Numbered from the whole stretch's first letter, positions 16,781-53,064 are shown. The stretch: 61,902 nt of DNA, filler included, from 5 parts of 5 records of this genome joined end to end with filler, not necessarily neighbours in it; one strand, 5' to 3'. Program-made: numbers and translations. The notes: a model not told the origin generated them from the letters alone.

Positions 16781-16794
16781 ATCTTTTCAAATTT

Positions 16795-26565: not shown

Positions 26566-26844
26566 CTTTACTAGAAAACTTTATTAACTGCCTAAAATAG
26601 TGTTGGGTACAATTAGACGGATTCGCAAATATTATTTTCATTAGTTCATAAAGCACAAATTTGGGCAGATAAATTTATTCAAATTGTTACAAATTATCAA
26701 AATCACTCTATTATTCAGATAAAATCTCAGACGTATGAACACTGTTTATATTATAATAGTATAATAGGCTCTTCATTTCTTTGATTAAAGTTTTTTGTCA
26801 AAATATGTTTTCATCATTTTAAAAATGTCTTAACCCCTACAAAT

Positions 26845-29133: not shown

Positions 29134-29233
29134 NNNNNNNNNNNNNNNNNNNNNNNNNNNNNNNNNNNNNNNNNNNNTTAATTAATTAANNNNNNNNNNN
29201 NNNNNNNNNNNNNNNNNNNNNNNNNNNNNNNNN
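29134..29233. other. Artificial contig linker
   Basis: N44-TTAATTAATTAA-N44, stops in all six frames. Confidence 0.98.
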
Positions 29234-29263
29234 CTCTCTCTCTCTCTCTCTCTCTCTCTACAG
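29234..29263 (+). repeat. (CT)n microsatellite serving as polypyrimidine tract and 3' splice site
   Basis: (CT)n-ACAG directly before the in-frame start of the giant exon. Confidence 0.75.
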
Positions 29264-32200
29264 CATCGCGCTCTACTCTGTGCCTGACACCCCGAGCCTG
29301 AGCATCAGTCCCATCTCGACTCAGACCACCGAGGACACCAGCGTCCCATTCACCATATCTCCCAGTGTTACTGACACTGACCAGTCCGAGAGAAACTCTT
29401 TTGTGCTGACCGGCTTGCCGAGCGCTTCGAAAGTCCTTGGTCTCAGTGGTTCCACCTCCTCGATCTCAGGGACAACCTATACATTGGTGTATCTAGGCAC
29501 CACGGGCTATGCGTCACATGCTCTGACTATAAAGCCTCCCCCCCAGTGCGACTATGACATGACTCTGACCGCGCGCTTGCATGCCAAAGAGACAAACAAT
29601 ATGGCTGCTGCACTCTCCAACACTGTCACTCTCTCGATTGAAGTCTCTGCTGTCCCCGATGCTGCCACGCTTGTGAGTTCCACGGATGCAGGGACGGAGG
29701 ATGTTTACACCGCGTTGAAGCTCACACCCTCCTTTCCTGACACCGATTCGTCAGAGCGGTTCGACTACGCCACTTTGAAGCTTGTGCCTAGTGCATCTGG
29801 AATCGTATTCTTGAGCAATGTTGAAGGGGTTCCGGCAGCATACTCGATCACACGCGCAAGCGCCAACACCTTTGCCCAACGCAGTATGCCAGCCTACAGC
29901 CTCACCATTGAAGCTCCAAGCCAGTGTGACAGGGACTTTACCATCAGTGCGACTTTGCAAACGAATGAGGGCTCGCTGACTGCCAGGGGCACGTGGTCAT
30001 ATCGCATTACCTTGCGTGCACAGGCCGACTCTCCTTCCGCGAGTCCCTTTTCGGTGACTTCTTGCATGATGACCGAAGACAAAATGGCAAAGTTGTCGTT
30101 TGATCCCCAACTCTCTGATACGGATGGCAGTGAAGCCGTGCGTCTTTCTACCCAGAGGTCACTGACTGGCCTCGCGAAACTATCTGCTGTCAATTCCGTG
30201 ATTACTGCCACTCCTTTCACGCTTCAGATCAACCTCACACCCACAACCTTCGCCAGTCCAATCAGCTTCAGCATGTCTCCGCAACCACAATGCGATGTTG
30301 ATTTCACTCTGACCTTCAAAGTCCAGAGCGTTGAAAAGAATGGCAACGATTTATTCGCTAGCCCAGCAAGCACGGTTGGAGTCGAGCTTTCCTCGATTAC
30401 AGATGAACCCGTGATCGCATCTGGCAATGACGCGCAATCCACTTTCACGACGGAAGATATCAAGGTCACAATGAACTTCCAACCCAAGAGTGCTGATACA
30501 GATGGCTCGGAATTGCTTGCATCGATTCGTTTGTCCAGGAGCGGGGATGGAATGACCGTGTCAGGACTTTCTCCTCTCCAGCTCATTGCTTCAAGTAACT
30601 CATGGACTGTGACTTATCCAGGCTCTGGCTTTGCTCTCGAACGCATCTACGCTCTCAGCATATTCCCTGTGCCACAATGCGACGTGGACTTCACGATCAC
30701 CTCTCGATCCGCTGCAGTTGAGCGGAACACGCCGATTCAGGCTGCTACTACACTGTCCACTAGCCAGGGTAGAGGTGTGCAATTGCGGTCTTCGCCGGAC
30801 GCCCCCTCACACACCTTGCTGTTCCCGGTTGGGGCCACGAGCACGGTCTCTACTGAGGATTTATCAGTGCCTGTCACGCTCCTGCTTGTGATGGGAGTGG
30901 ATACTGACCGCTCCCAAGAGCTCACGCGGCTGAAAATAACTCCGAGTCGCAACTTTGTTCTCGACGCTTCTTATGGGTTTGTCTCTGCCATCGGTACCTC
31001 CACCTACACTCTGTCTTGCCCCCCCACTGGCTTCACTGCTCAGTTTTCGTATGCTCTTTCGCTGAGTCCTGCTGTACAATCAGATGTCGATTTCACGCTC
31101 TCCTCGTTCGTGCGGTCTTGTGAAAAGAATTCAGCCTCTTCCTCCTCTCTCTGCGCCTGGGGGCCAGTACAAACTCTCAACATGGTGGTCTCGGCTGTAG
31201 CTGATGCACCCACTGCAACTCCAGCCTCCTATACAACCAGCACGAGCGAGGATATCCGTATTACACTCAGCGTTTATCCATTGGCTTTTCTGGACACAGA
31301 TCGGTCCGAGAAATATCGTCGACTCGTGTTGAGTTCCAATTATGCTGGATTGACTTTTGTCGCTTTGGATCATCAAGGCATGGCTGTAGGTGTGAAACAG
31401 TCTAGCAACGTGTATACCATGACCACCGGTATCAATGGATTCTACTCCAATACTGCGGTAGTGTTCAGCGTATCCCCCTTTGTACAGTGCGATCGGGATT
31501 TTACTTTATCTTTCCGGTTCCATAATGTGGAAACGAATGGCGACCAAGTGTACATCCCGGTCTCCTCCGCCATTATGATGCACCTCAGTGCTGTGGCTGA
31601 AACCCCATCCGTGACCACTACGTTGTCCACATTTTCCACAACCGAGGATGTAGGCTGTACAATTCCTCTCACACTGGCCGTGGGTGTCGACACAGATGCT
31701 TCGGAATTGATCCGCACTCTCGTGATCACCACCATTGCCCCTCAAGTCACTGCGCTCTCCGGAACACTCAGTCAATCAGGGACCACATCAACGATCACCA
31801 TGTCCGGGCAGCAACATCTTCCTTCTCCATTGTCTGTCCAACTCACAAGTGCATCCCAATGTGATCTTGACTTCACTGTGAGCGCACGCCTGAATTCGAT
31901 CGAGAGCAATGCCGGCGACTCTCGCACAGCGACTCTTAGTCGAACAGTCATTGTGTCTGCTCTCGCTGAGACCCCTTTGCTCTCTGCCGCTGACACGTTC
32001 ACAACAGAGGATGTCCGTGTCGCTTGGCGCATCACCCCTTCATGGAGTGTCGATACAGATGTGTCCGAGCGTCTCAAGGTGCTCAAAATCGAGCGTCCAT
32101 CCTTTAGCTTTGGCTCTCTCGGAGCTGGTGGGAAATTCACTGGGCTAGCCAATACTGTGTCCGCAGTGAGTATTACGTATTACATACTGACTGCTACCGC

Positions 32201-35200
32201 GGCAGGAAGCTCAGGTTTTGCCTCTGGCAAGTCACTGCAGTCCTTGTCTTTCAGCCCCTCGGTGCATTGCGATATCGACTTCACAGTCACCATCCAGCTC
32301 ACTGCAGTCGAGACGAACGGTCGCTCGGTGGCCTTCACTGCGACCACCATGTGCACAATCATTTCTGCTGTCTCTGATCGTCCTTCCCTGGCTGTCTCTG
32401 GAGGAGGATCCGCTAGACTCACAGAGGATGCCTCACAGTTTATCCGAATCACGCCCTCCCTCCAGGATACTGATAGCTCGGAATGGTTCCACACTCTGCG
32501 TCTGCGATCCTACAACACTGCAACGTACATTTCTTCTGTTGGGTACCAGCTGTCCTCTGCTCTGCCGTACAGCTCTGCTGCGTGTGATGCTTTGCTGACC
32601 TTCACGCGCACGAACCCGAGTGGATCGACCTCTCGTGCCGTGACCACAACCATCATGCCTGTCTCTCAGTGTGACATTGACTTCACCGTGACAATGACAC
32701 TGATGGCATCCGAGAAGAATGGGCTGGATGTCTCGGACCAGCTATTATCCGCAACCGCGTCTTTTGGTATCTCTCTTTATGCCGTTTGCGATGTCCCTCA
32801 GCTCTCTCTCCCTGCCTCGACATCCACTCTCGAGGACAACACCCTACCAGTGGCCGTCACACCCAAGTTTGGGGCCGATACTGATGCCAGTGAGGCGTTG
32901 CGCATGCTCGTGTTCTCAGGCATGCGGTCTGTGACATTGCCCTCCATCTCTTATTTCAAAAGCTCCCAATACGGTAACACCTACACGCTGACCGCAACGG
33001 ATACTGGCTTTGCTCACAACACGATGCTGCCGTCCTTCCATGTGACTCTGGCTCGGCAGTGCGATGTCGATTTCAGCTTCAAGCTCACGGTCATTTCTCA
33101 TGAAAGTGATCTGGATAGCAGCCCAGTGGTCCAAAAGGCCACAGCGTCCATGCAGGTTTATATATCTGCTCTCGCAGACATGCCATGGGTTTCCAGTTCC
33201 CTCTCGACCTCGACCATCGAAGACATCTCTGTGCCGCTTTCTCTGTCCCCATTTTCGGCAGACACAGATTCTTCTGATCGAATTCGTGGATTGATCATCA
33301 CCACGAGTGCGCTTGAACAGAACCTTCGCTTTACAAGCACGTCCAACGTCGTTTCGAGCGTGTCAGGGACCACTTACACAATGGCACACCCCAACTTGGG
33401 CTATGGCAAAAATACAATAAAGACATGGTTCTCGCGCGTGGCTGTGGCTCAGTGTGATTTCGACTTCACTTTGGTCATCCGATCGAAAAGCATCGAGACC
33501 AATGGCGGGGATTCTGCGTTAAGCACCACTGTGTGTCTTCAAGTGCTCGTGACGCCTGTGTCTGATACGCCTGTCCTCACGCTCGGCACTCCGTTTGCTG
33601 GATCTGAGGATACCCTTGTGCGATTGACACTCACTCCTCGCGTGGATGAGGATACTGATCTCTCAGAACTGCTTACCTCTCTCACCATCAAGTCAAGCGC
33701 TGATCTCACATATCAGAGTATTTCTGGAACCTCGGCCACTTCCATCGCGACGCTGTGCACGCTGACTGCCAGCGCTTCTGGCTTTGCTACAGGTGTTTCG
33801 TTCACGCTGGAAATTACCACCTCACCGCAGTGCGATGTAGACTTTACGAGCAGCTTTGTGCTCCGATCATGTGAAAATAATGCTGCTGCTGTCCCTGCAT
33901 CTTTTGCTTGCTCTACCTATTCCATTTCAAGTCTAGTTCAAGTCTCGGCCGTGGCGGACACTGTCTCGATCTCAATTTCCACCACTCCGGCCCCCTTGCT
34001 GTCCACGGAGGATTCAACTTCTTTGGTGACCGTGTCAGGGGTCCTGATCGACACGGACTCATCCGAGCAAATTCGAAAGCTTATTTTTACGAAATTGCAA
34101 GGAGTGACTTTCCTTTCTATTCCTGTCACATCTTCTTTGGTCATCACTACAGTTTATACCTTGACTGCTGGTTTTGCCACTGGCTTTGATGGTGCGAGTA
34201 CCAGTCTAACGATCAAACCGGTTCGAGAATGTGACATTGATTTCACATTAACTGCTTATGCTGTCACAGCGGAGGAAAATCGCAAAGACCAACTTCGATC
34301 CACAAGTAAAAGCACAGCCGTGGCTCTGACTGCAGTAACGGACGCCCCTATCCTCACTGCAACTTCCACAGCCACGACCACTGAGGATGTGAAAGCTCCC
34401 TTCGCACTTAATCCCAGAAACAATATTGACACGGACGGATCACAGTCTCTTGGACCCTATGTGTTCAAGTACCCGTCCTATCCAGGGAATGTGTACCAGT
34501 TCCAACCCAGTGGCACAGGCACGGTCACTAGTACCGGGTGTATCTACACGCTCACTGCGGCAGCCGCAAGCGGCTTTGCCTCGTCATCTGCGACATACTA
34601 TGTGACTGCACCCGCACAATGCGATCAGTCTTTCACTCTCACCACCGTGCTGTTCACTCTCGAGCGGAATCATGTGATCACGGATGCAGGCGCCTCCACA
34701 TCCTTGAGCATCGGGTTCCGGGTGGTACCAAGTGCAGATTTCCCCGTGATCTCGGTGGTGCAAACCACCTGCACGAGTGAGGATACTCAGACTGTTTTGA
34801 GTGTCATCATCCCTTCGCATGGCGCCGATACTGACCAATCTCAGCTTCTCAGCAGCATATCTCTGCGAGGCCCCGCGGGTATTTTGATCCCGTCCCCTGC
34901 CGTCTATTCATCCAACATCTTCACGCTCACTGCGGCCTCGTCAACAGGATTCACTTCCGCTTATGCTGCGGACTCGCTGTCTTTAACCCCGACCAATCAA
35001 TGCGATATTGACTTCACTCTGACCGTGCGTGTGACCACCCTGGAGCGAAATCGTATGGTTGTATCCAAGACCGCGCGACTTGGCAGCACCACACTCGGTG
35101 TGACCGTGAGTGCGGTCGCTGATTCAGGTGTGCTCTCGCTGTCCCCGGCCTCAGGCTCCACGCAGACCACAGAGGATATGCGCGCTGCAGTGGGCGTTGA

Positions 35201-38200
35201 GGCGAGATTCAATGTCGATTCTGATTTATCCGAAAAGTTCCGCGCGCTCATTCTACGACAGTACATGCCGAATTCTATGCCCTTCCCTTACAGCTTTGTC
35301 ATGAATCATCCTGTCGCAACATCGCAGAGTTCGACTTACTACACCATCACCACACTCAATACTGGCTTCGAATCCTATGTGCCTCTTCCACTGAGCATCA
35401 CGCCTGCGACACAATGCGACGTCGACTTCACCGTTTCAATCACTCTGGTCAGTATCGAAGCGAACCGAGTAGGTGCAACAGCAGCGACTACCTCCAACTC
35501 TTTCAGTGTCACTGTGCGTGCGCGGACTGACAGCTTCTCGCTGGCACTCCCTTCGAGCACCGGCACCATTGAGGACACAACTGTCACCATGAGCATCACA
35601 CCCTCGAATATCGTAGACACTGATCGCTCCGAGCGGGCTTCGCAAGTGCGTGTCTCTCCACCCAGTCGCATGTCGGCTGTCGCATTCCCCTTGACCCATT
35701 TCCCTTCAAGCTCCATTCTAGCTACTTCCTATGTCTTTGCGAATTGTGATGTAAACTTTATGTTTTCGATCACCGTATTCTCATTCACTCCTAGCCGTCA
35801 ATGCGATATCGATTTCACGCTCACCGTTGCTGTGACCAATGTGGAGCTGAATGGTGTTGTGCCATCCATCACCTCCTCAGCCACAGCTCCGGTCTCTGTC
35901 AGTGCTTTGTCTGATGAACCAAGCTGGGCGGTTATATCAACTTCAACGACTACCACTGAGGACATCAAGGTTGCCATCCGAAGCACTGCGCAGTTTGGCG
36001 TAGACACGGATGCCTCTGACCGGCTGCGCAAGATTATTCTCAGCGCGTTACCCACGGGGTCTAGAGTCACTGGCATGCCGACTGCACCCACGACCACCCT
36101 CGCTGCCTCGGTTTACACTGCCACTGCTGCCGGGACCGGTCTCGCTCCAGGAATGAAACTCTTGCCCTACAGTGTGTCTGCTGTCGCTCAAACCGACTAT
36201 GACTTCACTCTCTCTGCCAAGGTCGCAGCTGTCGAAGAGAATGACAAAATGTGCTCGCTGAGTACACCCCTCGAGGTCAAGATTTCTGTGACAGCACGAG
36301 CGGATACTCCAGCAGCTGTTTCAGTAACCTCCACGGCCACTTGGGAAGATCAACAAGTTGCAGTGAGAATGACACCAGATATTCTTGTTGATACCGATGG
36401 GAGTGAATATATCGGTACTATTCTTTTCAGCGCCATTTCATCATTCGTTCGTTTTGCTTCGTCACATTCCTCATCGCAAGTTGGAAGCAAGTATACCATC
36501 ACAAACAACCTGATGATGAACTCTGGCTTCGCTGTTCGATCTGCTGTCCCATCTCTGAGTGTGAGTCCCGCAGCTCATTCTGACATGGATTTCACCTTGA
36601 CTAGTCGAGTGTTTGCGTACGAGTCAAATGGAGCTTCATCTCGCGCTCTCAGTCCCTCTGTGAGCTTTGGAATCGCTGTCTCTGCCATCGCGGATGCCCC
36701 AGTGCTGACTGTAATAGTGTCCCGGTACACTACCGAGGACAAGGCTGTGAGGCTGATTTTCACACCTACTGCATCACCGGATACAGATCGGTCCAATCCA
36801 ATCCAGAAGCTCGTGATTCAAGAAGTTGGTAGTGTCATACTTGGACGCACTTTTCTTGGTGTCTCCAACACGCTCTCGACCCTCGTGTCAAATGTGTACA
36901 CGATGAGTCATCTCGCCGTGACTGGCTTCCTGAATGCAAATACTCCGATCTTGTCTGTGCTTCCATCCATTGACTGTGATTGGGATTTCTCGCTTACTTT
37001 AGCTCTGCGCGCTGTGGAGAGAAATGGGAAAAACGAGCTGGAGTCGTCGACCTCCTCTGGAACTGTTTGGGTTCGAGTGATCCCACTTGCCGATGTTCCC
37101 TCCGCTCCACTCCTCACTACCACAATGACAACTGAAGATTCGAAAGTGCGCTTGGTTATGGATCCATACGGCTCGCGTGATACGGACGAGAGTGAATGCC
37201 TCTCTCGCCTTGTCATGAAAACTCCCGCTTTCAGCATCACTACTACTGGTTTCAGTGTGCATCTTCTTCCTCAGACTGCGACACTTCCAGTTGGATCGAT
37301 TTTCACCCTCTCAACTGCAGGCTCTTTCACTCCCGCCGCTTCCATTCCAAGCTTCTCCATTTCGAATCCTGCCGAATGCGATGTCGACTTCACCTATACT
37401 GTGTACTTCATCTCTCGTGAAACCAATATTGGAGGGGACTTTGCTGTCTCTTCTACGAAATCCACCGGTGTCGAAATCTATGCTGTCAGTGATGAGCCTG
37501 CTGTGAGCTCGAGCCCAACAACATCGACCTCTGAGGATGTTGCTGTGGCCCTTTCCGTCACGGCGAACTACGTCAGTGATACTGACTTTTCCGACCGACT
37601 GCGGAAAATCTCTCTCACTTCTCTTCCTTCTGGGACCCGGATTCGAGCGATTCCCACAACTACATCGAGCTATACTTCGACGGTTTACACGCTAACGCAG
37701 GGAGGTACGACATTGACTGTGCCTGGACACGCATATTCACTATCATCAGTGAATCTGAGTGGATTCTCGTCTGGTGCCAAGGTCCGCGCGTTGAGCGTGT
37801 CGCCGATTAGCCAGTGCGACATTGACTTCACCTTGACCGCTCGAGTGATTGCGGTGGAACAAAATGGCAAAGACATCTCTATCTCATCATCGCGTGCAAC
37901 CATTGGCATTGCCGTGAGCGCCGTCGCAGATGTTCCTCTGCTTCAGATCGCCACTACGACTTGCACTACGGAGGATGTGCTTGTAAAATTAACTGTGACA
38001 CCAGCATTCACATTCTCGAATAGCGACACAGACGGGTCTGATCGGCCTCACAAGCTTGTGGCTCGCCTCCCTGTGGCCGACTATTTCACTCTCACTACTC
38101 CCCCAACTACTTTCTCTTCCCAGATTTTGGGCACATCTTTCACACTCAGTGCTGGCAGCATGACTGGATTCGAACTCAATTCCGCTCTGTCTGGCTGGAG

Positions 38201-41200
38201 TATTTCACCCCCTCTTCAATGTCACATTGATTTTTCTCTTTATGTTGCTCTCACCTCCGTCGAGTTTAATGGAAAGTCACCCAAGACGACCTCTTATCTT
38301 TCCACCCGAGTGACTGTATCGGCAAACAGCGATATTCCAGATCTGAGCGTGACAACCACCCTCTCAACTCTGGAAGATACACTTGTACGGCTCGACTTCA
38401 CTCCTAGTCATGTTTTCGACACAGATCGCAGCGAGCGATTGAAAACGATTTCCATTGAGGCCAGCGCTCTGACTGCTCCCTATCTCACTCTCACGCCGCT
38501 GTCTGCCCATCTGTATTCTGTGACCACCAATTCAGGTTCAGCGGTGTTCACTCTCTCCACCTCACAGCCAAGCATGACATCTGCAGTGCGAATCTCTCGC
38601 CCTAGCTTATCCTGCCCTGTTCAATGCGATCTTGACTTTTCCTTGACTGCCCGGCTGACCAGCGTGGAATTCAACGGCAAGTCCACGTCCTATTCCTCCA
38701 CGATATCGTTTGGCATTGTTGTGTCAGCGCAATCGGACCCCGTGACGTTCACCATGTCCACGAGCACCTCGACAACTGAGGACGTGAACGTGATCGTGTT
38801 CGTCACCCCGACCCTGATGGATGACTCCGACAAGTCAGAGCTGCTCAAGGTGATGTCCATTCAGCATGCACAGCTGAGCTATATGCAACTCACGGCGCTA
38901 GCCAGCACCAAGAGCTGCATGACGGACACAAGATACACCGTGAGCCAAAGTGGAACCGAGTTCTTCACCAGCGGTGCGATTGTGAGTCTTGACCTGCGCC
39001 CTGCCTCTCAATGCGATATCGATTTCACATGGAGTCTTGCTGTCTATGCTTACGAGCAAAATAATCAAATGTACAGCAGCACAACTGCGTCCATTGCTGT
39101 GAAGGTTTCTGCGGACTGTGATTTACCGAATATCTCTGTTGACGCTACAACGGAAACAACTGAGGATATCAAAGTGGCCCTGACTGTGACACCCTCGCTT
39201 CCCACAGATACTGATCGCTCCGAAACGATCCGGAAATTTGTTGTTGTGACTACCGCTGCTGCCATCTCTTTCTCGCGCATGATTGGCACCGTGTCCTCTG
39301 TTTCGGGCACTCGCTTCACTCTGACTGGCATCGGGAGCGGTTTTCAGTGGGATACAAAGCTTGTTTCTTACAGTCTCACACCAGCCTTGCAGTGTGATAG
39401 TGATTTTACTCTCTCGCTACGAGTCTTTAGCCGAGAAGAGAATGGCAAGAAGCAGCTTGGCTCGGCAACGATTCCCAGCATCCAAGTTTTCGTCTCCGCG
39501 GATAGCGATCTCCCAATCTTGAAGTATGTTTCCACTACTACTGGCGCAACCACCACATCTGAGGATGTCCGTGTGATCATCCCTCTGGAGCTCAGCATGG
39601 GTGTGGATACGGACAAGTCAGACAGGCTGCGCAAGCTTTCTGCTCAGAGCATGCCTGTGGGTATCACATTCACTGGGGTACAACAATCTCCGCATTCCTC
39701 ATCGCTTTCCAATACTCTCTACACTCTGACTTGCTCTGGGAGCGGCTGGGCCTCTGGTCAGAAGACGCAACTGCTTCCACTTTCCTTGAGTGCTGCTATC
39801 CATTGCGATGTGGATTTCACTTCAACCTTCACTCTATTCTCTGTCGAGGAGAATGGTGCCGATTTCGCAGCAACATCCATCTCCTTGGCTGTGATAATCC
39901 TCGGCATTGCTGATAAGCCATCCATCTCCGCAGTGTCAACCACGACCACTGAAGATGTCCAAGTGTCTTTGACAGTGGCGGTATCCGTGCAGGATACTGA
40001 TATCAGTGATCGACTGCGTGTGTTATCCATCCGTCGAGCCGTCCCGACTTCAGCGTTAAATCGGGTGACCTATGCTTGGATTCCGGGCACGGAGTCAACC
40101 ATTAGTGCCACCCTCTACTCCCTCACTTGCCTCAGTACAGGTTTCGGATCTGGAGGAGGAGGAGGTAGTGTGGTCACAGCGCTCAGTGTCAGTCCTGTAG
40201 TGCAATGCGATATTGATTTTACTCTCACCGTTCAGGTGAAAGCTGTGGAGCAAAACGGACGGAGTTATTCGACGTCCAGCACTCAGCCGCTTGCCGTGCT
40301 TTTGTCTTCGTGGGCAGACCTGCCTGCGATCTCTGTGCGCGAGACTGCTGTGACGACGGAGGATGAGACTGTGACTCTGTTCATGACTCCGATTATCGGT
40401 GAAGACAGTGACTCTTCGGACCATCTTCGCAAGATCTTTATCTCTGCACTGAATCATGCCACTTTCCATGGGCTGGCTTCTTCATCTTCCACTCGTGTGA
40501 GCACCAAGTACACTCTCAGTTCGCTTGATATGAACGGGTTTGTTCGACTGAAAGTGGTCAAGATGAACATCTCCCCTGCCGTCCAATCCGATATCGATTT
40601 CACTCTGACGGTAAATGTCATTTCTGTCGAAAAGAACAACAAAGACGCGATGGCCTCGACAACACTCTCCATTGGAATCGCAGTGTTGAGCCTCGCAGAT
40701 CCTCCGATGCTTACTGTTCAGACTTCGACCACTGTTTCTGAGGATGTGAAAGTACGACTCGATGTGAGCCCATCTTTTGTCCGGGATACTGATGTCAGTG
40801 ATCGCCTGCGGAAAATTGTGATGCAAACGTCGTCCTTCAGGCCGTTGACTCTCGTTGGTCTGAGCAACTGCTATTCTACAATGCTGGCAACTGTATACAC
40901 GATTTCACACCACTCGGGAAGCACCGGTTTCACTTCTGGTTTGGCTGTTGTGTCATTTTCTATCTCCCCGCCAGTTCAGAGCGATATCGATTTTTCTCTT
41001 GCTGTGAAAATCATTAGCGTGGAAATGAATGGACAAACTCAATCTGTATCAACCACTGTGTCCACCAAGTTCACGATTTCTGCAGTGGCTGATGCTCCTT
41101 CTCTAGAGGTCGCAGCCAGCACTCACACAACTGAGGACATCTCGGTAAAGCTTTACCTCACGCCATTTATTGGCCAAGACTCCGATGCCTCGGACCGTCT

Positions 41201-44200
41201 CGTGAAATTGAGCATGTCAAACGTTCCTGTGGGCTCCAAATTCAGGGCTAGATTTTTATCCTCTTCTATTTCTGGACAAATCTATACTCTCACTCGTAAC
41301 GCTGGTGTGGGCTTCCAAACGAATTCTATCGTGAGCTCGGAATTGTCATTCATCCCGCCGCTGCAGACCGATGTAGACTTTACTGTCTCGGCTCGCTTCT
41401 ACTCGACTGAACAGAATGGGAAATCGGTCGATGTGAGCTCGACTGTGAGTTTCGGAATGAGCATCACTGCTCGCGCCGATCAGCCTGCGTTCTACCCTCC
41501 TTCTGTCTCCACAACAACGAGTGAAGATGTTTGCGTGGTATTGAAGCTGACTGTCAAGTTTGGTGAAGATACTGATGCCTCTGACCGATTAACACGGCTT
41601 CGAATCTCTCATGCAAAGCTTTCCTATATTTCATTTGCATCTCTTGTGAATAGTGAGTCCATTCGAGTTGCGAGCTACTTCACATTGACCTTTGAAAACA
41701 CCGGTTTTGCAACTGATACACTAATCTCTGATTTGAGTGTCAGTCCAGCTGTTCAATGTGACGTCTCATTCACTCTCACCACCACGCTTGTGAGTGTGGA
41801 ATTCAATGCCAAGTCGTCTTTCCTGTCCACCTCTGTCACAAGCGGCGTGTTCATCTCTGCTGTGAGTGACACTCCAAATTTCGTGACTGAACCTTCAACC
41901 CACACCACAGAGGACCTGAAGGTGACGCTCTTCACCACGCCGCTATTTGGTGAGGATACTGATCGCTCCGACAATGTCCGTAAACTTCTGCTTCGTTCAC
42001 AACACATCCTGGCTATGTCTTTCACGAGCATATCCTTCTCGACCTCGAAGCGATCTGGGTCTTTTTACACGCTAACTGGGCGAACCGGCTTTGTTATTGG
42101 CTCCAAGATTCCATCATTGAGTCTCATTCCTGTCATTCAATGCGACTTGGACTTTACGCTGTCCCTTGAGGTCCAGAGTGTCGAGGAGGTTGGCAAGGAT
42201 TCGTCTACTTCGGCACAGTCTTTAATGTCAGTTTTTATCAGTGCTTTGCCTGATGATTGTACATTAAAAGTGCTCAGTACCTCCACAATGGAAGACACAT
42301 GTGTGCCGCTGACTTTCACTCCATTCACCAATATCGACACAGATAACTCCGAGCGCGTTCGAGGCTTTTCACTCTCACACCATTCCATCTCCATGAGTCA
42401 GCTCGGGTACGTCTACAGCGGAACGTCTACAGTTTCTGCCACAAGCATGACTGCACGATACTACACGCTGAGTGTCCAAACCCCTTTGCTCTTCTTGCAA
42501 AAGGTTGCTCTCATGAGCGTATCGCCTTCTGTGCAATGTGATGTGGACTTCACTTTGAGTTCGCGTGCTCTGACCTTTGAGGTCAATAATCGCTTGCCCG
42601 ACCAGTCTATGTCCTCTGGCCTTTCAATTGCTGTGAGTGCGCTTTCCGATGAACCCAATCTTTTGGTCGAATCCTCTTCCAGTGTGACTGAGGATGTCCG
42701 AATTCAGCTCAAATTCACACCCTCCTTTGTTCACGACACCGATGGTTCTGATCGCTTAAGAAGAGTGCGTGTTTCTGGCGCTGTAGTTCCCAGCCTCACA
42801 TTTATCCCCCCGAAGTTGATTGCTTCCACCTCTTCACGTCCCGCGACACACTACACCCTGAGTGCCATCGGTACCTCCCCTGTGTTCGCTCACACTAAAG
42901 CCACTATTCTATCTTTGTCACCGCCTGTACAATGCGATGTGGACTTTTCACTGTCTCTGATGATCTTTGCCGTCGAACAGAACGGATTGGTCGTATCCAA
43001 ATTCCCTGTTCAAGATGGTATAACCACCGGTATCTCTGTGTCCGCACGTTCTGATGAGCCTCTGCTTGCAATACTATCCACTCAAACTACGGAAGATATC
43101 ATGGTAAAGATCACTCTGACTCCTAGCTTTGACCGCGATACTGATCGCTCCGATGCCCTGCGCGTTATCAATCTGCACTTTGCAAGCATCAAATCCAAGG
43201 GTATTTCTCTTCCAGTGCTCAGTTTCCTGTCCTTCTCCTCCGTTGCAAACACTTGTACTGCCTCGTTCAACACAGATTACACAGTATCTGTTTTCGGCTC
43301 TGGTTTCGCATCGAAGGGCATGATCCTGACCTTGTCTCTGTCTCCTGCTGTACAATCGGACGTCGATTTCACGATCACATCGCGCATTCACGCTGTGGAA
43401 GAGAATGACAAGACGGTCTCTAGGTCCCTACCCAAGACCATTGCAGTGGCCGTTCTCGCACGCTGTGATACCCCAGACTACATCTTTTCCACTACGACCA
43501 CAACCACGGAGGATGTGCAAGTCGGTTTCATTTTAACTCCAGTCCCCATCGACACAGATTCTTCAGATCAGGTCAGAAAAATGTCCTTTAGCTCAAACAA
43601 TCCGGGTGTCATGGCTGCATTAGGCTTCTCAGCTTCGGGGCAATTTGATTTTGTCCGGGATGAAACAGCGTACACCATGAGCTACATTGGCAACGGTTTC
43701 GACTATAGTACAGCGTCCATGAATTCTGCGTCTGTGACTCCACCATGGCAATGCGATGTCGACTTCACTCTGACTGTCCAGCCGATGAACCTGGAGGAAA
43801 ACGGCAAGAACTCGCTGGTTTCGAACCGCGACACTGTCGGCGTGGTTGTTTCTGCTGCATGCGATATCCCGCTACTGAAAGCAACCGAATCTACAGAGAC
43901 AACGGAGGATATCTCAGTGGTTCTGCTGTTTAATCCATCCCTCGGTATCGATTCGGATGTCTCGGAGCGCCTTCGCAGGCTATGGTTGGTCCAGGATAAC
44001 ATGTTCAATGCCCCAAGTCTCATGTCTCATCTGAAGTTTGGCAGTGTGACCGATACTGACTCTGTGCGCACTGCAGCTGTATTTACCCTCACCAGCCCGG
44101 CTTCTGGATTTATGGATCAGACGCTGATTACAAACCTGAGTGTGAGTCCATCCTTGGTATGCGATATAGATTTCACCTTATTTGCTCGGATTACCGCCGT

Positions 44201-45861
44201 GGAGGTCAACATGCAGAACCAGATTGCGTCTCGGCCTGCTGTATCAGTGGGTGTGACTGTCTTTACGGTGTGTAATGGCATGACATTGACTGCCTTCCCC
44301 ACCACATCGGTCACCGAGGATGTACAGGTTGCCTTACGGCTCACGCCCTCGCAGACCCTCGACACTGATAACTCTGAACGCATCCGAACACTTTGGTTTA
44401 CTGGTGTTGATTCCACTGTGCTTGGCGATGAGCCTACTTTCCCTGGTCTCTCATTCTCATCCATGGCCACGGTCCGCAGTGCTCGGACTTCCTCAGTCTA
44501 TACCCTCACGCACGTCGCCTCAGGCTTTTCGCCTTTCTCGCTTGTGTCGAACCTCAGTGTCACGAACTTGGTGCAATGCGACTTGGATTTCACTCTTACT
44601 GCTCGATCGATTATTATAGAAGTGAATGACCAGTCCAGCATTTTATCGACAACGCAGTCCATTGGCATCGCTGTGTCAGCCGATTCGGATGTTCCCAAGC
44701 TGCTAGTGACGGAGAGAGATTCCATCCAGGAGGATACCATGCTACTCGTGCCGTGGGAGCCCTATAATGGATGGGATACCGACTTCAGTGATGCTTGTCG
44801 TACGGTTATCATTGACAATCCATTGCCTGGATATATGCCGACTTTACACTTCATGGGCATGCGGTACTCTGAGTCTTCGATCTCAATGAATGTGTATACT
44901 TTGACTTCCCCCGGCACTGGCTTTACCACGGCTCTGAGCATGGACATGTCGGTTTCTTTTGCCGCTCAATGCGATGTCGATTTCTCATTGACACTAAGAC
45001 TGCTCGCCATGGAATTAAATTCGGGCACAAACATTCACAGCAGCACTTGCTCGACGGGCATTGTAGTGTCTGGTGTCTCGGATGAACCTTCTCTCGCTAT
45101 GACAGCAACCACTGAGGTCACTGAGGATATTGCTGTGGTCTATGAGGTCACGCCATTCTTCTCCATTGACACGGATCTGTCAGATCGTATGAGGAAGCTG
45201 ATTGTTTCGAATGTTAGGAACGCAGACATTGGGAAGCTATCATTCATCGCACCGCGTGATACTTATTCGGCCCGATCTGCACAGACCTACACGATTACCA
45301 TGATGCCATCGACATCAGGTTTCACGGGCGACTCCCGTTTGAACTTCGCCAGTGTGACACCTGCCATTCAGAGTGATGTTGACTTCACTCTGACTTTCAT
45401 CCTTCATTCAGTTGAAGAGAACGCAAAGAGTTATTCGGCCAGTATGTCCAAGACCATCGGATTCTTGGTGCGTGCCTGGACCGATCCCCCATTGCTCAAT
45501 TCCATCAGCTCCACCACATTGACCGAGGATGTAAAAGGAGGGCTAGTTGTGACTCCCTCCTTTGGAGTGGACAGCGACGCCTCTGATCGCCTCAAGCATC
45601 TTCTTATCACTGCGCTCCCCTCTGTAATCCATCGGGTCTCATTTTCCCCACTGGCCAATACCGCATCCAGATTTGAAGCCAGCCTAGGATACTACACCTT
45701 CTCGGCACTTCGCACTGGGTTCCAGTCATCATCGCCCATCTCCTCCTTCAGCATTTCAGCAGTCACTCAGTCAGATATCGATTTCACGCTCACTTTCCGA
45801 ATCGTGGGCGTCGAAAGCAATGGCGGCAGGGATCTCACACATAGTCCGTCCGTTTCTACAG
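29264..45861 (+). CDS. Giant repetitive Ser/Thr-rich surface protein, internal exon of about 16.6 kb with about 42 cadherin/Ig-like repeats
   Basis: Repeats of about 130 aa: TTED...P..DTDxSE/DR...YTLT..GF...QCDxDFTL...ExNG...VSAVxDxP; bounded by CAG| and |GTAAG. Confidence 0.88.
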
Positions 45862-46103
45862 GTAAGAAGCTTCGTTATCGTCCTCATCATGTTCCTCTCT
45901 TTGGCTGTCCCTAACTCTTTTTTTTTTTTCTCAGTTTTCTCTTTTATTTCGTTCTATTTCATCATCATTCCCATCATCACGCTCTGGGGGTTTGTCCTTT
46001 TTTGATACTTTCTTGTTTCGTTTTCGATGCTTGCTCGGTTTTTTCACAAGACGCATTCATTTGAGATCTGTGTTTACTAACTGGTTGTCTTCTCTCTTGG
46101 CAG
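45862..46103 (+). other. Spliceosomal intron (242 bp, phase 1)
   Basis: GTAAG donor, TACTAAC at 46075-46081, pyrimidine tract, CAG; splicing joins the two ORFs in frame (SVST-G-LELIALPDVP). Confidence 0.92.
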
Positions 46104-49100
46104 GCCTCGAGTTGATCGCGCTGCCCGACGTGCCCACCGTTGTCGCAGGCTCCACCGCATCCACGGAGGACTACCGCTTATATCTGTCCATCACACCTTC
46201 GGGGAATGGCGATTCTGACCGCAGTGACCATGTGAATAGTCTATCTTTGAGCTCTCTCGTTTTCCCTGGCGCTTTCCCATTGAGCTTACCAGGAACTTTA
46301 TCCAAGATGAATGGAGCCTTATACACCCTGAGTGCTTTGGATGCATCCACTGGTTTCTCTTACTCTGGTATCGCGATTCCGAATCTCAGCCTCACTCCAG
46401 TGGTCGAGTGTGATCGCGATTTCACACTCACGTTGCGAATGTACGGCACAGAAATCAATGGACTTCAGTCTTCCGTTGGACTTTCCACGACCCTGGGTAT
46501 TACACTTCGTGGTGGTAGCGATATCCCATTAATATCAGCTGTGGAATCTACTCAAACAACAGAAGACCGGTCTGTGTACCTTTCGTTTACCCCAGCTCTC
46601 GGATCAGACTCCGACATGAGCGACCGCCTCAACAAACTTTCCATCCGAGCGACCATCCCGGTGAATAAAATCAACTTCAGATCCGTTTCTTCCACGACTT
46701 CGTCCCGAGTGAGCACTCAGTACACCCTGTCGGCCGCCGGGACTGGATACAAGATGAATACCGTGATCCCTCGGCTTAGTCTGACGCCCGCAATGCAGTG
46801 TGATGTTGACTTCACCCTCTCGGCTCGCATCCAAAGCGTCGAATTCAATGGAAAGAGCTCTGCTTTATCTGCCACCCAAGCCTTGGCTGTTGTAGTAGTG
46901 GCAGATGCGGATGGTTTCAACTTTGACTCTCTCAGCACCTCTACATCCAGCTCGGAAGATAGTTCGTTCCCGCTACTTCTCACTCCCAAGGCCCCATCTT
47001 TCCCGGATACTGATCTCTCTGACCGTCTTCGAAGTCTCACCCTTCGAGGCCCCACGCCTGCTATGCTGCCCATTCTCGCGATTTCGGGTATCCCAGGAAC
47101 TATATCTGCCTCCAGCTCTAGCATCTTTACTGTAACTGCTGACGGAACAGGGTTTTCGTTCGGCAAACGCATCCAAAAGCTGAGCTTGAGCAGCCTTGTA
47201 CAATGTGATATTGACTTCACAATGAGTGTGACCTTGATTGGCATCGAAGAGAATGGTGGTGCTAGAAAATCTAGTTCACGAAGCTGCAAGGTGGCTCTCT
47301 CTGCAGTCTCGGATATTCCTTTGTTAAACCTCGCAAGCTCAAGTACTTTGACCACTGAAGATGTTTCTACTGCTGTGCTTCTGTCCCCAAGCTTTGGTGT
47401 AGATACTGATGGTAGTGACACTCTCTATCGCTTGCTGGTGCAGCCGTGCGGTCCGATTTCCTTCTCATCGATCCCGAATACCAGAGTGCGGTTGTTTGCT
47501 GGTCGTTTCACCATTACAGCCTTCGGGACTGGGTTTGCTTCCTCCGCCAAGATTGTGAGCTTTAGCGTTTCGCCTGCTGTCCAAACGGATACCGATTTTA
47601 CTCTTTCGCTAACTTTGTTCAGCTTGGAACGAAACGGAAAGGGAAGTACAAAGACAGCCCCATCACCTCTCGCATTAGAACTCCGGCCTCGTGTGGATGA
47701 TATCACAGCTTCTTCACGTAGTACTCGGCTCACAGAGGACTTTACGACAGGACTGCTGATCACACCTTCCATTAGCAAGGATACTGATACATCAGAGCGG
47801 ATACTGAATCTTATGGCTCACTTCTCAATTGTCGAAGCGGTCACTTTTGTCACTCCGGCTGGAACTACTTCCTCAATGTCCAGCATGTCATTCACCTTGA
47901 GTTCTACCAGCAACTTCCTTGGTGCGACTCGTGTCAACGACTTCAGCATGAAACCATCGGTAGAATGCGATGTGGACTTTTCGATAATATTCTCATTTGT
48001 CACACGAGAGCAAAACGATATGTCTATTTCAGGCTTTGCAACAACCTCAATGGATGTTGTCGTCATGGCAAAAGCAGACCCAGCAACACTTTCGAATCCA
48101 TTTTCAACCTACTCGACCTCTGAGGATGTGATGGTGAATCTCTTGAACCTCATTCCTGTGAATGGTGCTGATACTGATATGTCTGAATGCATTGCCAAGA
48201 TTTCATTGGCAAATATGGTTGGAAACTCACTGCGAGTGACTTTCAACGCCATTCCGCTGACCACTTCGACTCTATCTAATGGCCGCTACACTCTGGCCTC
48301 CACTGGAACAGGTTTCGAAACAAACAAGCCCCTCTCTGATCAGTTTGGCATTCTCCCTCCTAAGCAATGCGATGTTGACTTTGTTCTTCGCACGGGCATT
48401 TTCACTGAAGAAGCCAACAACCGTGACCAAAGTGCCGTCATGTTGGGAAGCATCAGCATCCAGGTATCTGCGATTGTGGACGAGCCAGGGTGTCAGACTC
48501 GAGCAGCCATTACCACAGAGGATCGCCGCATCTCCCTCTGGGTGAATCCGAAAGCCAGTACAGATACTGATGGCTCGAATCCGATTACCCAGGTCTTGCT
48601 GACTGAAACTGCCTTCGGGTTGGAGCATCTGCTTGCCTTCCAGCTTGGAAGCTCTACCGGTCACCGTGATGATTCCACTTGGAATTCCACAACGTTGACT
48701 CTGTTGCATCCGACTCTTGCGTACTTCCCTTCCAACACAGCTCTGTCACAGTTCAGTATCTCAATGCTCTATCAATGTGATCAAGATTTCACCCTCACTG
48801 TCCAAGTTATCAGCACAGAAACAAATGGCCTCTCAGCGTCAATGAGCTCGAGTCAATCATTAGGCGTTGGTGTTTTAGCGGCATGTGATATCCCGGGTCT
48901 CATTGTTGCACCCGAAACTGCCACATATGAGGATACCTCTGTGCTCTTGCACCTTACTCCCACCCTGAATCTCGACACTGATGCATCTGAATCATTGTCG
49001 AAAATCAATATATTTGCGAAATATAGCTTCTATATGCCATCTTTGGATTCCTCTCCCAAAACCGCCTTCGTTTTTGTTTCCGAAGGAACAGGTATGACTC

Positions 49101-50932
49101 CTTTCGCGGCCATTCAAGATCTGAGTGCTGCGCAGTTAGCGAACTGCGATGCTGACTTTACACTTACACTCCGGTCTGTCGCTGTGGAAGAGAACAACAA
49201 GGATGAAGAGATGAGTGAGACTGTGACAATAAGCATTCAGGTCTCTGCTCTTGCAGACACTGCCAAGATTACCAGTCCAAAGTCGCCCTCGACAACCGAA
49301 GATGTCTCCCTGAGAATTGTGATCACCCCATCCTTCAGTGGCTTCGATACTGACGGATCCGAAATGATCTCGAAATTCATTCTTCTTTCTACCTCTGATA
49401 CTCAGCCTCTGACTTTATACACATTCTCGGGTATGGCAGGCACAGCTTCTTGCTTGACAGCCAATTCCTACACTCTGACGAGTCAAGGACCAAAAGTTTT
49501 CACTTCTACCAAAGCGATTCCTTTTTTGAGTGTAATAATGCCAGCGGAGTGTGACTTTGATTTTGCCCTTTCGATCCAAGTGGTGCTCTCTGAATCGAAT
49601 GGCAAGGATGAGAATCCGAGCTCAACCATGTCCGTCACTCATATCCTGCGCGCTGATGCAGACTCTCCCCTCCCCGTTCTCTACTCAAGAACAATCACGG
49701 AAGACACAAAGGTCGCCGTCATGCTTCAAGTTCTTCCAACTCAAGATACTGATGATTCCGAAGCGATCAACAAAATTTTCATCACTCATCCTCTCCTGAG
49801 CAAGTTTAAGTTTGCGAGCACGAGCTACACAGGTACCTCTCTTGCAGGGGGCGTGTACACTATGACCCGTCGAGGGTCTGGATTCACAATGAATGCACTC
49901 ATTCCCAATTTCAGTCTTGCTGCTGCACCGATTCAATCTGACATCGACTTCACCTTGAGCGTCGTATTATTCTCAGCTGAGAAGAACGGACGAGATAACG
50001 AGGGGAGCATCACACAGCAAGCAGGATTCGTTTTGGAAGCATGTGCGGATCGAGCTACTGTCAATATAACTCGTTCTTTTGCTGTCACTGAAGATCGATC
50101 CGTGGCACTTCAGTTCCTTGCAAACAACTCAACTGATACTGATGCAAGTGAGTTCTTGTCCAAGTTGATGGTGATTATGCCTGTGCCTCTGACTTTCACA
50201 GGCACACCCGAAACTAGCTCTAGCCATTCTGCTAGCCTATATACCATGACAATGCAGGGCACTGGCTTCGTATCAGGTCTGAATGTTTCCATGAGCATCG
50301 CAGCTCTCCCTCCAAACTGCGATGTGGACTTCACTCTCAACTTTGCTGTTCTCACCGTCGAGCAGAACGGATATGACTCCATCATCGGTTCATCCGCCAC
50401 GACTCGCATTGTGATTTCCTCCCTCTCTGACATGCCTGGTATTTCGATCCGTGTGCAAACGTCAGTTACAGAGGACATCCAAGTCCAGCTGATTTGCTCT
50501 CCTCGTTTCATACAAGACTCTGATAGTTCCGATGCGCTCCGAAAGGTTGTGGTTCAAGTCGCCTCCTCTGAAGGATTCAAGAAACTCAAGTTCAGTCCCA
50601 TGTCTGACACTATCTCGACCACTGAAACCAAGAGATACACACTCACGAGCATGGGCACAGGTTTTGCCGCCAGCGCAGCTTTGAAGGACTTTAGCCTCTC
50701 CTCCCCGACACAGTGCGACCGCGACTTCACTCTCTCGTTCTTCTCGATCGCTGTCGAAATCAACGGACGTACTACTTCTGCGAGCACGACGATGACCTCA
50801 AGCTTTGAAGTGACCGCGGTGTCCGATGTACCAACATTGGTGGCAATTGAATCCACAATGACATCCGAGGACGCCAAAGTCGCGATGACATTGACTCCTG
50901 CATTTGGCTTTGATACAGATGCGTCAGATAGA
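46104..50932 (+). CDS. Same giant gene, next exon (about 12 more repeats), truncated by contig end
   Basis: Same repeat consensus continues in register; open to the linker. Confidence 0.88.
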
Positions 50933-51032
50933 NNNNNNNNNNNNNNNNNNNNNNNNNNNNNNNNNNNNNNNNNNNNTTAATTAATTAANNNNNNNNNNNN
51001 NNNNNNNNNNNNNNNNNNNNNNNNNNNNNNNN
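50933..51032. other. Artificial contig linker
   Basis: N44-TTAATTAATTAA-N44. Confidence 0.98.
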
Positions 51033-51096
51033 ATTCATCCATGGCACTGGTTTAACCCCCCCGCCCCTCCCCCCCGCAAAATGAATATGCACTTAC

Positions 51097-52414
51097 TTGA
51101 GCCGACAGCACCTAAAAGAGCAAGTCCATCGCCGTAGTAGCTGCTTTGGCCCTCGGATGCACCCTCATGAGCCGCTACAAGCACAAAGGTTGAAAAAAAA
51201 AATAGTAATTAAAGCCACAAATATCCAGAACAACATAGCTTCATTCTTCGGTAAATAAAGCTCATAAAAGTCAAAATCATTGGATCTAAACATATCAATG
51301 GCTAAGGTGTCGGAGAGTGGTCATCATGGATCATTGATACAAGTAAGAAGCAAGACAAACATTGGAGAGAAAATACCCCCCCACCACCCTGTTTCCCCAG
51401 AAGAATAATAACAATAATTAAAAATAAAAATAAAATAAAAAAAGGCCTGATGGCACAAAGAACTCAAAAATGTCTCTCAAGCTCGAATATTTTTCGGGAT
51501 CGAAGCCACACAGGAAGGAGGAGTCACTGGACCCAGAGAAAATCCAATAGCGATGCAACTTTTCAATAGCTGGAGTTGTTCCCCAGCGGTTTCGTTTGCC
51601 CACAGTTTCAGAACGAAATCTTTGATTTACACTTCAAAGCGCTGACTCAGAAAGAAGGTGTAAAAAATATCTCGAGGGTGCACAGTTTCAATATCACGCA
51701 TTGTCCCGCCCGGAAATGTCTTTCATTTCTCCCACAGACCCAAAATAGCCTTCTAAATCCCTCAAACCTAAACTACAAAGAACAGGCAAATGAAAACTTT
51801 GACCAGAGAACAGGCAAATGAAAACATACCAAGAGCTCCACCCGCAAATCCAACCAATGCAGCAATCCCTTCACGAGAATCCACAGCTCGGCATTGCAGA
51901 AGCGGGCAAAATGCAACAATCAATGGGCATGTGTTTGTAAGTAACATTACGTTCAATAACGACGTATTGTCGAGAGCCCAGCTGCAAGTTGATGTAGCAT
52001 CACGACGTTGTCCAGAGTTAGAAAATAACGGAACATGCATTCAAAAAGCATTACCTAAAGAAGAAGTTGTAGAGCAAGAAGCCGAAGGCGGCAACAGAGG
52101 CCCATTTGAGAAGATATATCCTCTGTTCGGGAGAAAGGTTGCGCATGATCTTAATATTTTTTTGTCCGTAAAGTTCATAGAAAAGAAAAGGCAGTGTAGC
52201 GATTGATGTAACATGGGCACGCCAACTTGTTCGAAGCAAAGGAGCCACATCGCTGAGTTCATTCATGGCAATAAATGCGGAAGCCGCAAAGGCCATGCTG
52301 GTGAGCATGACCACGTACACCACAAAGATAAAAATGGTGCCCTAACAAGACATATAGTCAGAATGAGAGCTATATAGATTGATTTTCAGAAAAGTAGCGT
52401 ACATTATCTTCCAT
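51097..52414 (-). CDS. EamA/DMT family transporter paralogue A (spliced, 3' partial)
   Basis: Exons about 52414-52403, 52341-52055, 51981-51830 and one ending at 51097; LRTSWR, WALDNTSLLNVMLLTNTCPL, GDGLALLGA. Confidence 0.75.
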
Positions 52415-53064
52415 GATTCGACCAAAAATGTTGGAAAATTTCAGTTAGTGCGACGAGAAGTGAGGACTGAAAACAATCGGAGAATGTTCAATATTTTCAG
52501 GCATCAGGCTGAAAACCCGATTTCCTGCTGATTTCAATTCCCATTTTTCAGAACGTCGGCCACCCAGAATATTTAGAATGTCATTTCGAATTTCGAAATG
52601 CATTGAAAATGTACAACTTAAAATGTGCTGTTCATTCTTAAAAATGTCATTATTTTTCAAAATGGGAGCGAAGGTACGCGAAGAAAATACATCAATCAAG
52701 CGAGTGAGCTGGTGGAAGAAATTTCGAACTTCTAGAAGCTCGCTCGAAACCAGGAGAATATTTATCTGCGAACTATCGCACTTAGGGGGGTAAATGTTAA
52801 CTTTTTACAAGAGAGAACTACTAATTACCCTGCCTATGTTATGTGAATTCTGATTGTTGAAGTCACGAGAAAAAAATAACGACTCACTTGAGGCCCTGCA
52901 CACTTTCCTTTCGTTTTCGTTTCCCTCTTCCCTCGTCTTCTTTCGATCCTTTGCTCTTGATTTCGTATACTTGACTGTTCTATCATGTTTCAGATATTTG
53001 ACCCGAAAAATGTAGGTGTCTTGTTCTCTGCCTTTCATATTCACGCGAAACATCCATACCGATA

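Follow-up and report, generated by a model that had tools for sequence, protein, structure and literature searches.

A giant, probably spliced gene fragment, most likely from a protist, encodes tandem repeats related to those of giant bacterial proteins

Introduction

A stretch of DNA of 61,902 nucleotides (nt), called the window here over its full length, holds between positions 29,264 and 50,932 a giant gene in which one repeat of about 131 amino acids (aa) recurs along the entire coding sequence. The repeats look like those of giant adhesins secreted by bacteria, and the coding sequence appears to be interrupted by an intron. What kind of gene is this, where did its repeat come from, and what might its product do? 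A preliminary description, made from the DNA itself, had proposed an undescribed protist protein, and we followed it up with profile searches, repeat phylogeny and structure prediction. The reading that we consider fairly probable is that the array forms a rod outside the cell, probably stiffened by Ca2+, as part of a giant protist surface protein, and that it is built from a domain family shared with bacteria.

Results

The window consists of five contigs, A to E, joined by N44 + TTAATTAATTAA + N44 at 29134-29233, 50933-51032, 55126-55225 and 58748-58847. The contigs are unrelated, so that any apparent feature spanning a joint is an artefact. The giant repeat gene is exactly contig B (29234-50932; 21.7 kb, GC content 50.7%). 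It contains two open reading frames (ORFs), ORF 1 of 5544 aa (29280-45914) and ORF 2 of 1662 aa (45992-50980), which lie in different reading frames within the stop-to-stop frames 29190-45914 and 45866-50980. Between the coding parts lies a predicted spliceosomal-type intron of 242 nt on the plus strand (45862-46103, phase 1) with a GTAAGA donor, a TACTAAC sequence at 46075-46081 and a GCAG acceptor. At 38.8% GC and 47.5% T its composition differs from that of the exons (50.8% GC), and each of its three frames contains stops. Joining 45861 to 46104 gave 7,142 codons with zero stops, as expected from the earlier claim that the two ORFs join in frame through one intron into more than 7,100 aa. 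The join yields a normal repeat start (…STG|LELIALPDVP…), and the spacing from one DTDxS[ED] motif to the next across it is 133 aa, elsewhere 121-149. Because frame and repeat register are both regained once these 242 nt are taken out, the features support 45862-46103 as a GT-AG intron of a spliced eukaryotic gene. Contig B is an internal fragment of one such gene, most likely from a protist. Of the four other contigs in the window, three (C, D and E) look eukaryotic as well, in line with this assignment.

The exon at 29264-45861 (plus strand, 16,598 nt) is an open frame encoding repeats 1-42, of about 131 aa each, with D-x-P, ED, DTDxSE, (C/S)DxDF and ExN motifs. The exon at 46104-50932 (plus strand) encodes repeats 43-54 and the first 45 aa of repeat 55, and ends at the contig border. 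The preliminary description had called the protein open at both ends; it is right that no stop closes the frame on either side, but the reason is the contig borders. An artificial joint without strand, outside the gene, forms the left border of contig B (29134-29233), and a second one forms the right border (50933-51032).

At the start of the contig, 29234-29263 (plus strand) consists of a (CT)n polypyrimidine tract followed by ACAG. Its translation (SLSLSLSLYS) is off the repeat profile, while residues from 29265 onward match a repeat start. Because the (CT)n-ACAG stands directly before another repeat start, this segment probably belongs to an upstream intron truncated by the contig border, of which the 3' end is left. 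The internal intron and this putative cut intron fall at the same repeat codon, which precedes the Asp of the A-x-x-D-x-P linker by 8 residues; the two differ in phase, 1 for the internal intron and 2 for the cut one if the AG at 29262-29263 is taken as its acceptor.

Fifty-five DTDxS[EDQN] motifs mark 54 full repeats, 42 in the first exon and 12 in the second, and the cut 55th, so the earlier count of 42 + 12 diverged repeats of about 130 aa stands. A hidden Markov model (HMM) of the repeat, searched against the entire window translated in all six frames, gave 55 matches, all on the plus strand at 29262-50935; they cover the entire fragment, and the same search found no match outside contig B. 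The sequence of at least 7,142 residues consists solely of at least 54 tandem domains and has no hydrophobic segment of the transmembrane (TM) type. Ser and Thr together make up 28% of it, and there are 670 acidic versus 427 basic residues.

Identity among the repeats ranged from 19 to 50%, with a pairwise mean of 32%, and was flat against distance along the array (0.32-0.335 at offsets 1-19). At the DNA level the array resembled itself in just two short pairs, 48 and 71 nt long. Such deep, flat divergence with minimal DNA self-similarity indicates that the array is old, is not undergoing homogenisation and is improbable as an artefact of assembly. A super-repeat structure or recent duplication was also considered, and the flat identity and minimal DNA self-similarity rule it out. 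The array is under selection, as seen from its 7,142 stop-free codons and from columns that are invariant among repeats only about 32% identical. In alignment A1 of the 54 repeats, whose reference row is repeat 30 (40671-41063), E24, D25, D39, D41, S43 and E118 were invariant, and D10, T77, D105, D107, F108 and N120 were kept in at least 90% of repeats.

A Cys directly before the DxDF motif (profile column 101) was present in 43 of the 54 repeats and replaced by S, T or N in the remainder. It lies in a loop just ahead of a predicted strand and adjoins two near-invariant Asp residues. Other Cys residues are scattered, column 9 having one in just 6 of 54 repeats, and we rejected a regular disulfide partner for the conserved Cys on account of these scattered positions.

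We searched a profile of the 54 repeats against 1.84 billion representative proteins. At E≤1e-3 it matched 1,172 proteins, of which 612 also passed E≤1e-10 and 256 passed E≤1e-30; most of the listed matches were Cys-free bacterial giants. Profile and word-index searches together provided 151 matched proteins with at least one well-scoring repeat. Out of these, 135 had no Cys at column 101 (bacterial-type) and 16 had one (eukaryote-type). In the 780 repeats of the 135 bacterial-type proteins the column-101 Cys never occurred, and 569 had Ser instead. Because the bacterial repeats have Ser there, the Cys of the giant gene may be a conservative, perhaps buried, replacement of Ser, or it may be a cross-linking residue.

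The bacterial repeat units are 112-119 aa long, reach 20-53 bits apiece and cover the greater part of the protein; P0004 (7,609 aa) has 41 repeat matches, and P0029 (1,490 aa) has 13 over residues 2-1479. TIGR03661, the C-terminal target domain of type I secretion systems (T1SS), scored above cut-off in 7 of the 19 bacterial relatives scanned, and P0010 (3,953 aa) combines a Pfam match to the RTX nonapeptide with a T1SS C-terminal domain. Tandem-95, Cadherin_4 and VCBS modules occur elsewhere in the bacterial-type giants, and Cadherin_4 overlaps the N-terminal half of some bacterial repeat copies (P0016, P0156). Sources were named for P0156, which NCBI calls 'tandem-95 repeat protein [Azospirillum melinis]', and for one metagenome-assembled genome of Pseudomonadota. 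Look-alikes in the ESM Atlas came from bacterial clusters only (scores 0.89-0.93). In P0016 (3,311 aa) the repeat scores alternate at about 40, 22, 40 and 22 bits, which suggests a two-repeat super-unit, unlike the flat array of contig B.

A consensus of V.AVAD.P, ED, DTD.SE, (C/S)D.DFTL and E, in identical order, is shared by the 54 repeats of the giant gene, 90 eukaryote-type repeats and 787 bacterial repeats; its bacterial form reads V.AVADAP, ED, DTDGSE, SD.DFTL, E. With this motif order, the profile matches and the very long tandem arrays common to both, the comparisons showed, at the level of sequence, that the repeats are homologous to a repeat of giant bacterial proteins, several of them type I-secreted and RTX-adhesin-like. 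The two differ in that the bacterial unit, at 112-119 aa, has Ser and no GTGF segment, whereas that of the giant gene, at about 131 aa, has mostly Cys and a GTGF segment. The bacterial arrays also adjoin tandem-95, Cadherin_4, VCBS and RTX modules and T1SS signals, whereas the fragment in the window has repeats only.

The 16 eukaryote-type relatives had the column-101 Cys in 70 of 97 repeats, along with the GTGF segment and a unit of about 130 aa. They include P0003, P0005, P0131, P0020, P0051, P0017, P0140, P0035, P0006 and P0025. Three of these are EukProt records, labelled Rmarinus@m.20654 (P0003, 7,451 aa), Rmarinus@m.22865 (P0005, 6,213 aa) and Rmarinus@m.12685 (P0131). The repeat family is, on this sequence evidence, also present in other eukaryotes and so is not unique to the source organism of contig B. 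Identity between the giant protein and its closest relatives was 31-34% over up to 4,186 aa, and none is a close orthologue. The best match of its 54 repeats lay within the same array for 42, in another eukaryote-type protein for 10 and in a bacterial protein for 2.

Several of these relatives have modules besides the repeat. P0020 has, by eye, a signal-like N-terminus, then 8 repeats, GEX2-Ig, filamin and five hydrophobic segments with a TRP (PF06011) match; its residues 1031-3840, about 2,800 aa, match no Pfam family. In P0051 the repeats are followed by EGF_CA, one TM segment and a protein kinase, a receptor-kinase-like arrangement. P0017 and P0140 have EGF arrays, and P0005 has a single C-terminal TM segment. 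Precomputed Pfam assignments gave EGF types, GEX2-Ig and filamin in both P0003 and P0005, and REJ in P0005 alone, while P0006 and P0025 have repeats only. Compared with the giant gene and its at least 54 repeats, the eukaryote-type giants have fewer (at most 32 stretches, in P0003), and they possess EGF, GEX2-Ig, filamin, REJ, a TRP-like domain, a kinase and TM anchors, which the fragment does not. Its array of at least 54 domains is the longest among the family members examined.

Repeat trees were built with two programs from an alignment of only about 125 columns, and all were unrooted. The FastTree run used 20 repeats of the giant gene, 45 eukaryote-type and 136 other repeats, drawn at random from 54, 90 and 787. 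It placed 61 of the 65 repeats of the first two groups in one clade with an SH-like support of 82; the sole 'bacterial' row in this clade was P0035, which was later found to be Cys-bearing. In a quick IQ-TREE tree of 16 repeats of the giant gene, 32 eukaryote-type and 55 bacterial repeats, a single branch separated 47 of the 48 from every bacterial row; the exception was a long-branch row of P0051. A tree holding all 48 together was better by 72 log-likelihood units (p-AU 0.943). These groupings support a single origin of the eukaryote-type branch, and membership of the giant gene's repeats in that branch is shown, within the limits of sequence comparison, by the Cys before DxDF, the GTGF segment and the longer unit that mark it. 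The bacterial relatives are far more numerous among the proteins examined and the features of the eukaryote-type branch are derived, from which we infer that the domain probably passed from bacteria to eukaryotes a single time, in the distant past.

Library searches assigned the repeat to no existing family. No Pfam or NCBIfam model scored above cut-off in P0002 or in the first 2,000 aa of the giant protein (3,610 of 7,142 residues scanned). The repeats had no match at curated cut-offs to Cadherin_4, Big_9 or Cadherin_5 of Pfam or to tandem-95, VCBS or T1SS-143 of NCBIfam, and none to the classical eukaryotic cadherin repeat PF00028. When the repeats were scanned singly, 4 of 54 touched the Cadherin_4 model (best E 0.014), and this leaves a distant kinship with Cadherin_4 possible. 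No RTX nonapeptide, type I secretion or retention domain was matched in the 3,610 residues scanned, in a gene whose ends lie beyond the contig. The bacterial repeat is itself unmodelled, because P0029 consists of repeats over its full length and yet matches no family at cut-off strength; neither the bacterial nor the eukaryotic form is covered by a Pfam or NCBIfam model. We found no description of the repeat in eukaryotes in the literature and no mention of the motif string DTDGSE, and the accessible portion of a paper on DDxP proteins (PMC7730722) does not mention this motif set. Relatives of P0002 were also sought in contigs: 18 pattern matches in metagenome contigs and 14 in genome contigs gave 0 confirmed in either.

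AlphaFold2, given an alignment of the repeats themselves, predicted an all-beta single repeat with a predicted local distance difference test (pLDDT) score of 80.8 and a predicted template modelling (pTM) score of 0.74. For the tandem pair of repeats 30-31 (40671-41453, plus strand) the pLDDT was 89.3 and the pTM 0.75. The models thus depict the repeat as a beta-sandwich domain. Compared with 48,161 PDB representatives, the single repeat ranked 9CSE chain A first (Z 9.4, root-mean-square deviation 2.9, 110 aligned residues, 19% identity), and the tandem model matched 9CSE with Z 11.2, deviation 2.7 and 111 aligned residues. 9CSE was also the sole PDB sequence match of the repeat profile, at a weak E of 0.094, aligned over the DTDxSE motif. 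Foldseek gave 286 matches for the tandem model at E≤0.001 (integrin leg domains, antigen I/II adhesins, SiiE and others), which is a generic tandem-sandwich signal. Against MpIBP (4P99) the tandem model reached a Z of only 8.2.

According to the portion of its source available (mBio 2025, PMC12077191), 9CSE is the immunoglobulin (Ig)-like split domain of the Aeromonas hydrophila RTX adhesin AhLap, residues 4168-4498; the construct begins at AVAD, and an RTX beta-roll buds out of the domain. A split domain with an inserted beta-roll fits the split chain range of our structural alignment. The likeness to AhLap comprises the AVAD start, the alignment at D-x-D-G-S-E and a best or joint-best structural match over about 110 residues, and that to RTX adhesins generally comprises tandem beta-sandwiches in a long rod with conserved Asp, Glu and Asn, known for the giant gene from sequence and model. 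The AhLap split domain, however, is a single copy with the RTX beta-roll inside, whereas the domains of contig B are tandem, eukaryotic, Cys-bearing and longer. The matches that our profile returned did not include the 28 near-identical extender repeats of AhLap itself, and the extender tetra-tandemers of AhLap, MhLap and SiiE were absent from its PDB sequence matches. Moreover, RTX adhesin genes are bacterial and uninterrupted, unlike this gene with its predicted GT-AG intron and its place in a eukaryote-type clade.

Every part of the preliminary description that could be tested held up under these analyses, apart from corrections of detail. Kinship to type I-secreted bacterial giants was borne out by the 1,172 profile matches, by single repeats scoring up to 53 bits and by TIGR03661 in 7 of 19 relatives. 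The repeat HMM search that it had proposed found matches in bacterial and in eukaryotic proteins alike. Single and tandem models were both all-beta, in agreement with the beta-sandwich fold that it expected, and the repeats again fell in no known eukaryotic family, with nothing in Pfam or NCBIfam above cut-off. The repeat phylogeny that it had suggested brought the eukaryote-type repeats together (47/48 by IQ-TREE, 61/65 by FastTree). Its placing of a Cys in the (Q)CDxDF motif of nearly every repeat was right in part: the Cys is real and specific to the eukaryote type, but the occupancy is 43/54, with S, T or N otherwise.

Discussion

How might such an array work? In RTX adhesin extenders, as described in the available part of PMC7493085, Ca2+ in the linkers is held by conserved Asp, Asn and Glu and stiffens the rod. 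Because acidic residues like those of RTX extenders, including one in the A-x-x-D-x-P linker, are invariant here despite deep divergence, we infer a Ca2+-stiffened extracellular rod. By this analogy the repeats would bind Ca2+ at or near the domain junctions through D10, E24-D25, D39-x-D41-x-S43, D105-x-D107 and E118-x-N120, and the bound ions would stiffen the chain. Domains of this kind measure 4-5 nm each, so that 54 of them would make the fragment roughly 0.2-0.3 micrometre long. The rod may be joined to EGF/filamin-type modules and a membrane anchor as in the eukaryote-type relatives, whose architectures suggest a membrane-anchored adhesion or sensing protein. Such a rod would keep a part that binds or senses well away from the cell surface, and might serve in adhesion, in contact with prey or substrate, or in mechanosensing.

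Several observations weigh against this picture. The borders of contig B fall within the repeat array on both sides, and the fragment has no signal peptide, anchor or tip domain of its own. The architectures of the relatives may not apply to this gene, because 31-34% identity is no more than that between its own repeats. It is also unusual for an extracellular domain to conserve a lone Cys that lacks a regular partner. The match to 9CSE is not clear of cohesin/Ig-like sandwiches, which reach Z 9.1 and 8.9 with the single repeat and 11.3 and 11.1 with the tandem model, and Foldseek against the PDB gave nothing at E≤0.001 for the single repeat, just generic cohesin/Ig-like sandwiches. Lastly, the direction of transfer is not readable from unrooted repeat trees.

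The conserved Cys is the starting point of the strongest competing explanation, that the gene encodes a secreted structural protein of a wall, scale, stalk, mucilage or filament, in which rods are cross-linked through one free Cys per domain. A partnerless Cys kept in 43/54 repeats here and 70/97 in the eukaryote-type relatives, and in none of the bacterial ones, would suit this role, as would 28% Ser and Thr, the excess of acidic (670) over basic (427) residues, the lack of a TM segment in 7,142 aa and the repeats-only sequences of P0006 and P0025. We nevertheless consider it unlikely: those relatives long enough to judge carry membrane anchors and receptor-type modules, the lack of a TM segment means little within an internal fragment, and the equivalent bacterial residue is Ser (569 repeats), so that the Cys may be a conservative, possibly buried replacement.

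The window does include a bacterial contig, most relatives of the repeat are bacterial and the Atlas look-alikes are exclusively so, and one could therefore suppose that contig B is a bacterial contaminant, a type I-secreted adhesin gene with a frameshifting 242-nt insertion or an assembly error. This is very improbable, given that the 242 nt run from GT to AG and include a TACTAAC and a T-rich interior, that cutting them out exactly restores frame and register, that a polypyrimidine-AG signal opens the contig, and that the Cys at column 101 (found in 0/135 bacterial-type relatives), the GTGF segment and the 131-aa unit place the repeats in a clade with EGF, kinase and filamin proteins. Equally slight is the chance that the gene is carried by a giant virus or other protist mobile element and not by a cellular genome. 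Such an origin would fit with contig B showing this gene alone, and with its GC content of 50.7%, which differs from the 41.5-44.1% of the neighbouring eukaryote-like contigs; the GC gap is explained, though, by a contig that is nearly all coding, with an intron of 38.8% GC. The spliceosomal-type intron, the relatives in a eukaryote protein collection and the flat repeat divergence, with no sign of recent turnover, also speak against a mobile element.

Going beyond the Ca2+-stiffened rod of a protist surface protein, we offer a bolder scenario that is possible but doubtful. A bacterial type I-secretion extender domain would have been taken up once by an early protist lineage, would have gained a thiol beside a putative Ca2+ site and would have become the building block of an undescribed family of megadalton receptors, fused in the relatives to EGF, filamin, GEX2-Ig, REJ, a TRP-like channel or a kinase, with the unpaired Cys serving cross-linking or redox/metal sensing along a quarter-micrometre rod. 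The part of a preprint available on diatom adhesive trail proteins (bioRxiv 10.1101/2023.03.06.531300) states an acquisition from bacteria for them. As far as that source goes, they provide a precedent for bacterial adhesion-type domains in protist extracellular proteins. The diatom proteins are reportedly based on another domain type than the repeat studied here.

The gene links calcium-stiffened bacterial extender rods with giant protist surface receptors, two subjects that seldom meet. If our interpretation is right, one bacterial domain gave rise to a eukaryotic family with very long stalks, wired in the relatives to channels, kinases, EGF or filamin modules. The family would offer testable material on the means by which single-celled eukaryotes reach out to, hold or detect prey, partners and surfaces. 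Because Pfam and NCBIfam lack a model of the repeat, proteins of this kind currently go by the annotation 'hypothetical'. The 54 diverged copies of contig B are a natural set that marks the residues indispensable to the fold and to the putative metal sites.

Setting of the gene in the window

The assembly is a mix of organisms, with one bacterial contig and four eukaryote-like ones of 41.5-50.7% GC. Contig A (1-29133, GC 32.7%) is bacterial, with dense bacterial gene packing, and includes a TonB-dependent receptor with a CarboxypepD_reg domain. Its minus strand carries a bacterial defence-type island at 10093-22488. In descending coordinates, all on the minus strand, this comprises a type I restriction R subunit (19654-22488), a HATPase_c_3 protein (18122-19387), a type I restriction S subunit (16795-18027), a 435-aa protein with no match in Pfam (15473-16780), GmrSD (13542-15329), a type I restriction M subunit (12058-13554), PRTase-CE (10723-11790) and NADAR (10093-10713). 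On the plus strand at 22792-28773, an ORF of 1,257 aa with no Pfam match at E≤0.01 is followed by a patatin-like phospholipase of 642 aa.

Contigs C (51033-55125, GC 41.5%), D (55226-58747, GC 44.1%) and E (58848-61902, GC 43.6%) have short open frames only and are eukaryotic in appearance, D and E holding split pieces of conserved eukaryotic-type genes. On the minus strand of contig D, 55900-56734 contains exon-like short ORFs of a divergent PP2A B55 regulatory subunit, one piece of which matched B55 chains in the PDB at E 1.2e-5; the split of PP2A B55 over short exon-like ORFs indicates that contig D is eukaryotic with introns. Contig E has on its minus strand at 58848-59585 a CDF/ZnT-type cation-efflux gene in two ORFs, with a His/Gly-rich loop, which reaches the joint; an Atlas search with this fragment returned just 'Eukaryota', the phyla being uninformative. 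In contig C, 52051-52341 (minus strand) and 53065-53418 (plus strand) are two alike EamA-like membrane-protein fragments, with weak Pfam scores below gathering.

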